26,779 nucleotides of DNA from an uncultured Gammaproteobacteria bacterium. GTDB taxonomy: Bacteria > Patescibacteriota > Patescibacteriia > UBA9934. The position numbers were made by a program, and so were the translations under genes. The stretch lies in assembly GCA_964357305.1 (NCBI GenBank), contig CAYHKX010000001.1:1-26779 (forward strand), written 5' to 3'. Shown piece after piece: positions 9,541-10,699 of the stretch. The notes under the pieces are model-generated. The model had not been told where the DNA came from. It saw nothing but the letters and a program-made list of their open reading frames with translations, and searched no databases. How positions within the stretch are numbered: the stretch's first letter is position 1; every line of letters begins with the position of its first letter.

Positions 9541-10699
9541 GGTTCTTGGCACCCGCGGTCAGGCGCGTCGCGGCACACTCAGCACGATGCACGGCATGGT
9601 GGAAACGCCAGTGTTTATGCCTATTGCCACAGCTGGCGCCGTGAAGACGTTACTCCCAGAGGAGGTGCGGGCGCTTGGCGCATCCATTATTCTTGGAAAT
9701 ACGTATCACTTGCTCCTTCGGCCGGGTGAAGATGCGTTACGCAATCTCGGCGGCATGCGCTCGCTGATGGGCTGGGATGGGCCAATGCTCACGGATAGTG
9801 GGGGATACCAAGTGTTTAGTTTGGCAAAATTAAACGCCACAGACGAAGACGGCGTGACATTTCAGTCACACATTGATGGCGCAACCGTGCGGCTCACCGC
9901 GGAACGATCCATGGAGATTCAGGATGCGATCGGATCATCCATCCGTATGCAATTCGATGATGTTGCTGCTGGAGAGTCGACACGTGAGCGATATGAAGAC
10001 GCAATGGAGCGATCGTTGCGTTGGGGTGCGCGATCGAAACAAGCATTCGATCAGGTGTTTGGACAACGTCCAACACCCAACGTCCAACGCCCCCTGCTCT
10101 TCGGCATTGTGCAAGGCGGAACGCATGAAGATTTGCGCGCACGATCCCTGAATGGATTATTGGAGATCGGATTTGACGGATATGCGATTGGCGGTCTTTC
10201 CGTCGGCGAGAAACGTGAAGATGCATTTCGTATTGTGCGGACGTTGACGGAGGCTATGCCGAGCGACGCCCCACGGTATTTTATGGGCGGCGGGATGCCG
10301 GAAGAAATTATCTATTACGTTTCTGTTGGCGTGGACATGTTTGATTGTGTGTTGCCAACGCGGAATGCGCGGCATGGATCATTATTTGTGTGGACGAAGG
10401 ATCCCAACGTTGCAGTGCGTGAGGCGTTCGATCTCGCAGTTGCCGGTGCTTCGGATTCGGAAATCGCCTCAGTGTTATATGAAAAGATTCAGATCACGAA
10501 CGAACGATTCACAGAGGATTTGACGCCGATCGATGCGCTCGGTGATGTTCCGACATCTCAGCAATTTTCCCGTGCCTATCTTCGTCATCTGTTGAAAACG
10601 CAAGAAACCGTCGGATTGCGACTCGCGACCCAGCAAAACCTTGGATTTTACTTGAGAATGATGCAGGAATTGCGGGAATACACAGCAATTCCCTTGTGA
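9518..10699 (+). CDS. tgt: tRNA-guanine transglycosylase (atypical, see findings)
   Basis: TPVFMP, NTYHL, LTDSGGYQVFSL, FGIVQGG, GGLSVGE, DMFDCVLPTRNARHG, SRAYLRHL. Start set at MSAQKPF (ATG 9518). Confidence 0.95.
   Translation: MSAQKPFKVLGTRGQARRGTLSTMHGMVETPVFMPIATAGAVKTLLPEEVRALGASIILGNTYHLLLRPGEDALRNLGGMRSLMGWDGPMLTDSGGYQVFSLAKLNATDEDGVTFQSHIDGATVRLTAERSMEIQDAIGSSIRMQFDDVAAGESTRERYEDAMERSLRWGARSKQAFDQVFGQRPTPNVQRPLLFGIVQGGTHEDLRARSLNGLLEIGFDGYAIGGLSVGEKREDAFRIVRTLTEAMPSDAPRYFMGGGMPEEIIYYVSVGVDMFDCVLPTRNARHGSLFVWTKDPNVAVREAFDLAVAGASDSEIASVLYEKIQITNERFTEDLTPIDALGDVPTSQQFSRAYLRHLLKTQETVGLRLATQQNLGFYLRMMQELREYTAIPL
10064..10091. repeat. 7-bp tandem array inside tgt
   Basis: CAACGTC CAACACC CAACGTC CAACGCC; translation QRPTPNVQRP. 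Confidence 0.85.

Follow-up and report, generated by a model that had tools for sequence, protein, structure and literature searches.

The window, i.e., the whole stretch of 26,779 nucleotides that was analyzed, carries a gene (tgt) whose product we denote P0001. The gene, its neighbors and the features discussed below are collected in Table 1. The 5′ end of tgt overlaps the upstream SpoU-family gene by 23 nt, and a GTG at 9494 provides an alternative start. On the downstream side the gene is followed by secD and secF; the adjacency of tgt and secDF is a classical gene linkage. A profile search of the contigs found tgt to be the sole TGT-family gene of the genome.

Table 1. Features of the tgt locus, with positions in the window; residue numbers of the pocket and zinc site follow Z. 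mobilis TGT
Feature	Position	Strand	Basis
SpoU-family RNA 2′-O-methyltransferase, upstream of tgt	8869..9540	+	PF00588, PF22435
tgt, tRNA-guanosine(34) transglycosylase, 393 aa (P0001)	9518..10699	+	TIGR00430, PF01702
Asp102 equivalent (P0001 D93), catalytic, in LTDSGGYQV	9794..9796	+	phmmer alignment
MQFDDV: Asp156 kept, Glu157 to Asp, Cys158 to Val	9947..9964	+	atg caa ttc gat gat gtt
Four tandem heptamers CAACGTC CAACACC CAACGTC CAACGCC, coding part of QRPTPNVQRP	10064..10091	+	sequence
GGLSVGE: Gly230, Leu231, Ser232, Val233, Glu235	10190..10210	+	ggc ggt ctt tcc gtc ggc gag
YFMGGG (residues 254-259 of P0001): Tyr258, Phe259, Met260, Gly261, Gly262, Gly263	10277..10294	+	alignment
Asp280 equivalent (P0001 D276), catalytic nucleophile, in DMFDCVLPTR	10343..10345	+	alignment
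Insert of about 26 aa compared with Z. mobilis TGT, two predicted helices (296-308, 313-320)	10403..10483	+	phmmer gap, AF2
Former zinc knuckle CxCxxC, now G-D-V-P-T-S: Cys318 to Gly, Cys320 to Val, Cys323 to Ser	10541..10558	+	phmmer alignment
Fourth zinc ligand, His349 to Gln	10634..10636	+	phmmer alignment
secD (with inserted PpiC rotamase domain) and secF, downstream of tgt	10732..13635	+	Pfam

Some minor features of the surroundings may be recorded here. The PpiC-type peptidyl-prolyl isomerase domain of secD (10732-12729) follows the first P1 segment and precedes the P1 head, at residues 239-349. At 15287-17131 this small genome encodes a VirD4/TraG-like type IV secretion coupling protein (TrwB_AAD_bind, TraG-D_C), adjoining open reading frames that have no Pfam matches, e.g., that at 13781-15280. 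Directly upstream of the SpoU-tgt pair lie two mutually adjacent reading frames, one at 6276-7847 (523 aa) having no Pfam match and the other at 7849-8859 (336 aa) giving only faint GH5/GH42-like matches. The four tandem heptamers within tgt are in frame and fall in a variable surface loop, with a pLDDT of about 80 in the AF2 model; this loop exceeds that of the genus mates by a few residues.

P0001 scores 405.2 bits against the profile of the bacterial Tgt equivalog TIGR00430, for which the cut-off is 306.75, and 425.6 bits against the Pfam TGT family PF01702. It is 45% identical to the TGT of Z. mobilis by phmmer alignment. An AF2 model built from an alignment of 150 sequences (pLDDT 95.6, pTM 0.94) superimposes on the Z. 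mobilis enzyme with an rmsd of 1.3 Å, and the best matches of the model in a Foldseek search were to Z. mobilis TGT with TM scores of 0.87-0.92, corresponding to the TIM-barrel TGT fold. Two other identities were rejected. The scores for archaeal TgtA (TIGR00432, 106 bits against a cut-off of 350) and for DpdA (NF041059, 18 bits against 200) speak against the first. The eukaryotic QTRT1 identity fails since the Gly of the Val/Ser/Gly pocket is missing, the single TGT-family gene provides no QTRT2 partner, and the phmmer score is 261 bits compared with 360 bits for bacterial Tgt.

The gene also has the marks of one that is in use. The equivalent of Asp102 never varies among the 120 homologues and the 90 genomes of the order that were compared, and comparison of tgt with that of four genus mates, where dS is unsaturated, gave dN/dS values of 0.03-0.09. 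Since the catalytic residues do not vary in over 200 sequences, the dN/dS values are this low and the AF2 model is confident, P0001 is deduced to be functional. We conclude from the sequence that tgt is an intact, functional bacterial Tgt gene under purifying selection, the product of which departs from the textbook family at Cys158 and at the zinc site.

The residues of the base pocket have been examined using the numbering of Z. mobilis TGT, transferred by phmmer alignment. P0001 retains Asp102, Ser103, Tyr106, Asp156, Gln203, Gly230, Leu231, Val233, Glu235, Tyr258, Met260 and Asp280, and most of these (all except Ser103 and Tyr258) also figure in its likeness to the Z. mobilis and E. coli enzymes as a pair (EC 2.4.2.29; TIGR00430; PDB 1PUD, 1Q2R), together with the secDF neighborhood and the presence of QueA in the same genome. 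The changes are Glu157 to Asp, Cys158 to Val, Ala232 to Ser, Leu259 to Phe, Val262 to Gly and Lys264 to Met; P0001 also differs from those enzymes in lacking the zinc ligands and in having the helical insert. The initial annotation had described this as a hybrid of a eukaryotic and a bacterial pocket. The codons match the positions it had given for MQFDDV and GGLSVGE, and the alignment bears out its reading of YFMGGG in place of the usual YLMGVG. Its eukaryotic pattern was also recovered, with MMQLDDVV and IGGLSGGE in QTRT1 of crab (P0215) and IMALDDVV and IGGLAGGE in that of willow (P0245). Human QTRT1 (PDB 6H45, 7NQ4) resembles P0001 in its D-D-V motif (containing Val161) and in Ser231, but it has Gly232, Phe106, an intact zinc site and a heterodimeric partner in QTRT2, where P0001 has Val233, Tyr106 and no zinc site.

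How unusual are the individual residues? We made a tally of P0001 and its 150 nearest representatives of clusters at 50% identity (n = 151). Ser232 is found in 72 of the 151, so that GGLSVGE is ordinary for bacteria, and Ser232 is ruled out as a eukaryotic mark. By contrast, Val158 occurs in 18/151, Phe259 in 12/151 and Gly262 in 4/151, most Tgts having Val at the last position; from this tally Val158 and the Phe259/Gly262 pair emerge as the true peculiarities of the pocket. Gly233 was found in 7/151. The description as a hybrid is therefore retained in part: positions 157 and 158 are eukaryote-like and position 233 is bacterial, but Ser232 carries no such information. In the Z. mobilis enzyme, Val262 presumably lines the pocket for ribose-33 and uracil-33 rather than that for the 7-substituent, in line with the inhibitor literature. 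The titles of PDB entries for V262T, V262D and V262C mutants with 2-substituted lin-benzoguanines fit this location, and the literature searched contained no paper supporting the role.

The pocket is not confined to this genome. The 120 closest homologues, which are 65-93% identical and come from Patescibacteria/Uhrbacteria to judge from their source names, all have Val158, Ser232, Val233, Glu235, Phe259 and Gly262. Of 101 genomes of about 1 Mb that were sampled from the order, 97 have a Tgt, and we compared 90 of the 97 genes, drawn from seven families. Ser232, Val233, Phe259 and Gly262 are present in every one of the 90, and Val158 in 89, the exception being a single Leu. Moreover, the pocket is unchanged among the 90 whether or not the genome contains QueA, QueH or YhhQ. 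In the other families of the class Cys158 is found in 66/78 Tgts, and Val158 in just one further genome (1/78). The constancy in close homologues and across the order indicates that the signature is not a product of chance; with Val158 so rare in other families of the class, we take it to have arisen once near the base of the order and to have been retained since. The conclusion that emerges from these alignments is that the hybrid pocket is a fixed, inherited trait of one order of Patescibacteria, the Uhrbacteria-like, ultra-small bacteria.

We have also searched for the genes of the queuosine pathway. There are none in the window, as the initial annotation had stated; however, a full-length queA is present on another contig of the same genome (C24, 1113-2177, 406 bits). 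The source genome is a MAG of 710 kb in 143 contigs that is 91.7% complete, and profile searches of it found no QueC, QueF, QueG or QueH, and no YhhQ/Vut_1, QueT, HlyIII or ureide permease, a gene content that sets it apart from Z. mobilis and E. coli. Qng1 was also not found in the source genome, a weak negative as the Qng1 control was positive in 0/14 control genomes. The genome thus holds an incomplete pathway, rather than the complete one that, combined with strict preQ1 specificity, had been set against the hybrid reading. The 27 assembled tRNA genes include tRNA-Tyr(GTA), a substrate tRNA.

Within the order, 81 of the 101 genomes contain QueA, as do all eight of the genus; QueG is found in 0/101 and a convincing match to QueC in about 1/101. 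QueH occurs in 9-10 of the 101 (all four genomes of family f7 and six of f2) and in none of the 39 of the own family, f1; genomes of f1 and f5 have Tgt and QueA without QueG or QueH. In the genomes that contain Tgt, QueA and QueH, which together lead from preQ1 on the tRNA all the way to Q, the pocket is identical to that of P0001. Twenty of the 101 have lost QueA and kept a Tgt with the same pocket. YhhQ exceeded the cut-off in 7/101 genomes, namely 4/20 of those that are QueA negative and 3/81 of those that are QueA positive, a comparison among relatives that is not a statistical test. Inspection of the neighborhood of queA in 21 genomes revealed no candidate for a reductase or transporter, the neighbors being housekeeping genes only (rpsB, release factor and similar). 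The literature searched contained nothing relevant on queuosine in Patescibacteria.

QueA is not known to act on any substrate other than preQ1-tRNA. This bears on the initial proposal that the enzyme may salvage queuine or another 7-deazaguanine. Salvage as such is upheld in that Tgt and QueA occur without QueC, QueF, QueG or QueH, and QueC is so rare in the order. Queuine as the salvaged base is not supported and was rejected: the steric gate Val233, which known queuine-salvaging bacterial TGTs replace by Gly, is retained, the genome has QueA, and the pocket is constant throughout the order, being the same in genomes having both QueA and QueH; nor was YhhQ or Qng1 found in the source genome.

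The specificity of the pocket has been studied by mutation in model enzymes. In PMC3074131 Cys158 is put forward as a bacterial adaptation for the selection of preQ1, and Val161 of human TGT favors queuine over preQ1 (PMC3074131). The Cys158Val substitution in Z. mobilis Tgt raises the Km for preQ1 from 0.9 to 16 μM, i.e., 18-fold (PMC3660597, Table 1), and Cys145Val in the E. coli enzyme raises it from 0.05 to 2.76 μM, i.e., 55-fold (PMC3074131, Table 2). Val233Gly is needed for queuine to fit productively into Z. mobilis Tgt (PMC3660597), and neither the Cys158Val nor the Cys158Val/Val233Gly enzyme inserts queuine (PMC3660597, section 6). The Z. mobilis Cys158Val mutants (PDB 4GD0, 4H7Z; PMC3660597) are like P0001 in combining Val158 with Val233, but unlike it they are without Phe259, Gly262, Asp157 and Ser232 and keep the zinc site. 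In queuine-salvaging bacterial TGTs the corresponding motif is GG[LS][AS]G, according to the summary of Yuan et al. (2019) in PMC11570991.

The Val158/Val233 pocket is compatible with the insertion of preQ1 and most simply explained by it, because of the substrate of QueA and because the pocket is identical in genomes that have Tgt, QueA and QueH together. P0001 is thus probably a working bacterial Tgt that inserts scavenged preQ1, with QueA acting after it, and its pocket a signature of the order rather than an adaptation to queuine. In outline, preQ1 would be scavenged from the surroundings or a host. Since QueC, QueF and the transporters sought were not found, it would enter by a route outside the transporter families that were searched, and import by such a transporter may be envisaged. 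Tgt would then exchange G34 of tRNA-Asp, Asn, His and Tyr for preQ1, the choice of base being suggested by the co-occurrence with QueA and QueH and by the retained Val233, and QueA would turn the inserted preQ1 into epoxyqueuosine. With no QueG or QueH found, the modification pathway would stop at this point; in the own family, either epoxyqueuosine would be the end product on the tRNA, or a third epoxyqueuosine reductase besides QueG and QueH would act.

Several observations count against this explanation. The known preQ1 transporter families, QueG and QueH were not found, and about 20% of the genomes of the order are without QueA but have the same Tgt. The source genome, moreover, is a MAG that is not fully complete. 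In addition Val158, given its effect on Km in the model enzymes, is odd for an obligate scavenger; either changes fixed along with it make up for this effect or the bacteria make do with weaker binding. Phe259 and Gly262, or other changes, may offset the weaker binding of preQ1.

An enzyme of dual or relaxed specificity would account for some of this. Val158 together with Asp157, as in QTRT1, might admit both queuine and preQ1 according to the supply from the host or community. Such a reading draws on the preference conferred by Val161 in human TGT and the loss of preQ1 affinity in E. coli Cys145Val (PMC3074131), and there is a precedent in the bTGT of Bartonella henselae, which has Val233 and prefers preQ1 but can process queuine at high concentration (PMC11570991). 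That organism relies on salvage and so provides an example of an enzyme that uses salvaged preQ1 and, to some extent, queuine as well; it differs from the present case in having GGLAVG as in E. coli (PMC11570991), a QPTR transporter and no QueA. The queuine-salvaging TGT of the Chlamydia trachomatis type, as presented in PMC11570991, is also comparable, belonging to an organism that depends on a host or community and has no de novo synthesis, and having a pocket that departs from the canonical one with Cys158; it has Gly at position 233 and is encoded alongside yhhQ without queA, whereas here Val233 and queA are present and yhhQ was not found. We retain dual specificity as an alternative because the genomes lacking QueA keep Tgt with the same pocket, YhhQ is enriched among them and the situation is Bartonella-like. 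It is nevertheless improbable. Val233 is invariant in the order, and even the double substitution in the Z. mobilis enzyme did not confer queuine insertion (PMC3660597). QueA is strongly conserved, being kept in 81% of the genomes of the order, the pocket is the same with and without QueA, and the source genome yielded no YhhQ and no Qng1, the latter being the weak negative noted above.

Insertion of another 7-deazaguanine, such as preQ0 or a host-derived analogue, which the altered pocket would then reflect, is very doubtful. The pocket does lie off the optimum for preQ1 at positions 158, 259 and 262, the searches found no source or transporter of preQ1, and the class shows a wide variety of pocket motifs. 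Against this, the reaction of QueA requires the preQ1 aminomethyl group, and in a genome where QueF was not found preQ0 could not be converted. Leu231 and Glu235, the residues that read the aminomethyl group, are conserved, and the scores for archaeal TgtA and DpdA fall far below their cut-offs.

Insertion of preQ1 thus remains the preferred reading, and the second departure of P0001 from the family can be considered alongside it. The structural zinc ligands have been called absolutely conserved in TGTs (PMC3074131), and the literature searched contained nothing relevant on a zinc-less TGT. In P0001 all four are replaced. Ser323 is present in 120/120 close homologues, and none of the 38 Tgts examined of family f1 retains the site. 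Losses extend throughout f1 and f5, together a single clade, to part of f6 and to one genome of f2, corresponding to at least three independent events within the order on a FastTree tree. Across the class the site is missing in 28 of 79 Tgts sampled, 20 of these 28 being in QueA-positive genomes. The helical insert lies upstream of the former knuckle and is modeled by AF2 with a pLDDT of about 98; in families f1 and f5 it is always 27 residues long. The former zinc region of P0001 is also confident in the model. That tgt is a decaying or functionless relic, marked by the loss of the zinc site and of Cys158, with tRNA left unmodified or undergoing only guanine-for-guanine exchange, is exceedingly improbable, for although the zinc ligands are gone, the pathway is incomplete and mutation of zinc ligands reportedly cripples E. 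coli TGT (Chong et al. 1995), the dN/dS values, the catalytic residues invariant in 210 sequences, the retention of Tgt in nearly all genomes of such small size, the co-retention of QueA and a model that is confident throughout all argue against it.

A more far-reaching proposal would extend to the whole of this host-dependent order of Patescibacteria, in which a zinc-free, relaxed Tgt with Val158, Phe259 and Gly262 might take preQ1, queuine or another host-derived 7-deazaguanine according to supply, the own family ending at epoxyqueuosine or using a third reductase. We regard this as unlikely.

The departures at the pocket and the zinc site leave the kind of enzyme, a Tgt, unchanged. Their significance is that a large natural lineage breaks the rules both for Cys158 and for the zinc ligands, yet keeps QueA and is under strong purifying selection. 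As the lineage with Val158 keeps QueA, position 158 taken alone would misclassify salvage of preQ1 as against that of queuine; position 233, together with the QueA and QueH context, is the better predictor of the salvaged base. The analysis also points to two gaps in the queuosine biology of the CPR, the importer of preQ1 and the missing epoxyqueuosine reductase.

Finally, the Tgt pocket motifs in the other families of the class (loci L113-L192) are very varied. Examples include Glu232/Phe233 with a variable residue at position 235, Ser-Ile-Tyr at positions 232, 233 and 235, and Pro or Phe at position 158. Many of these variant-pocket Tgts occur in QueA-positive genomes.
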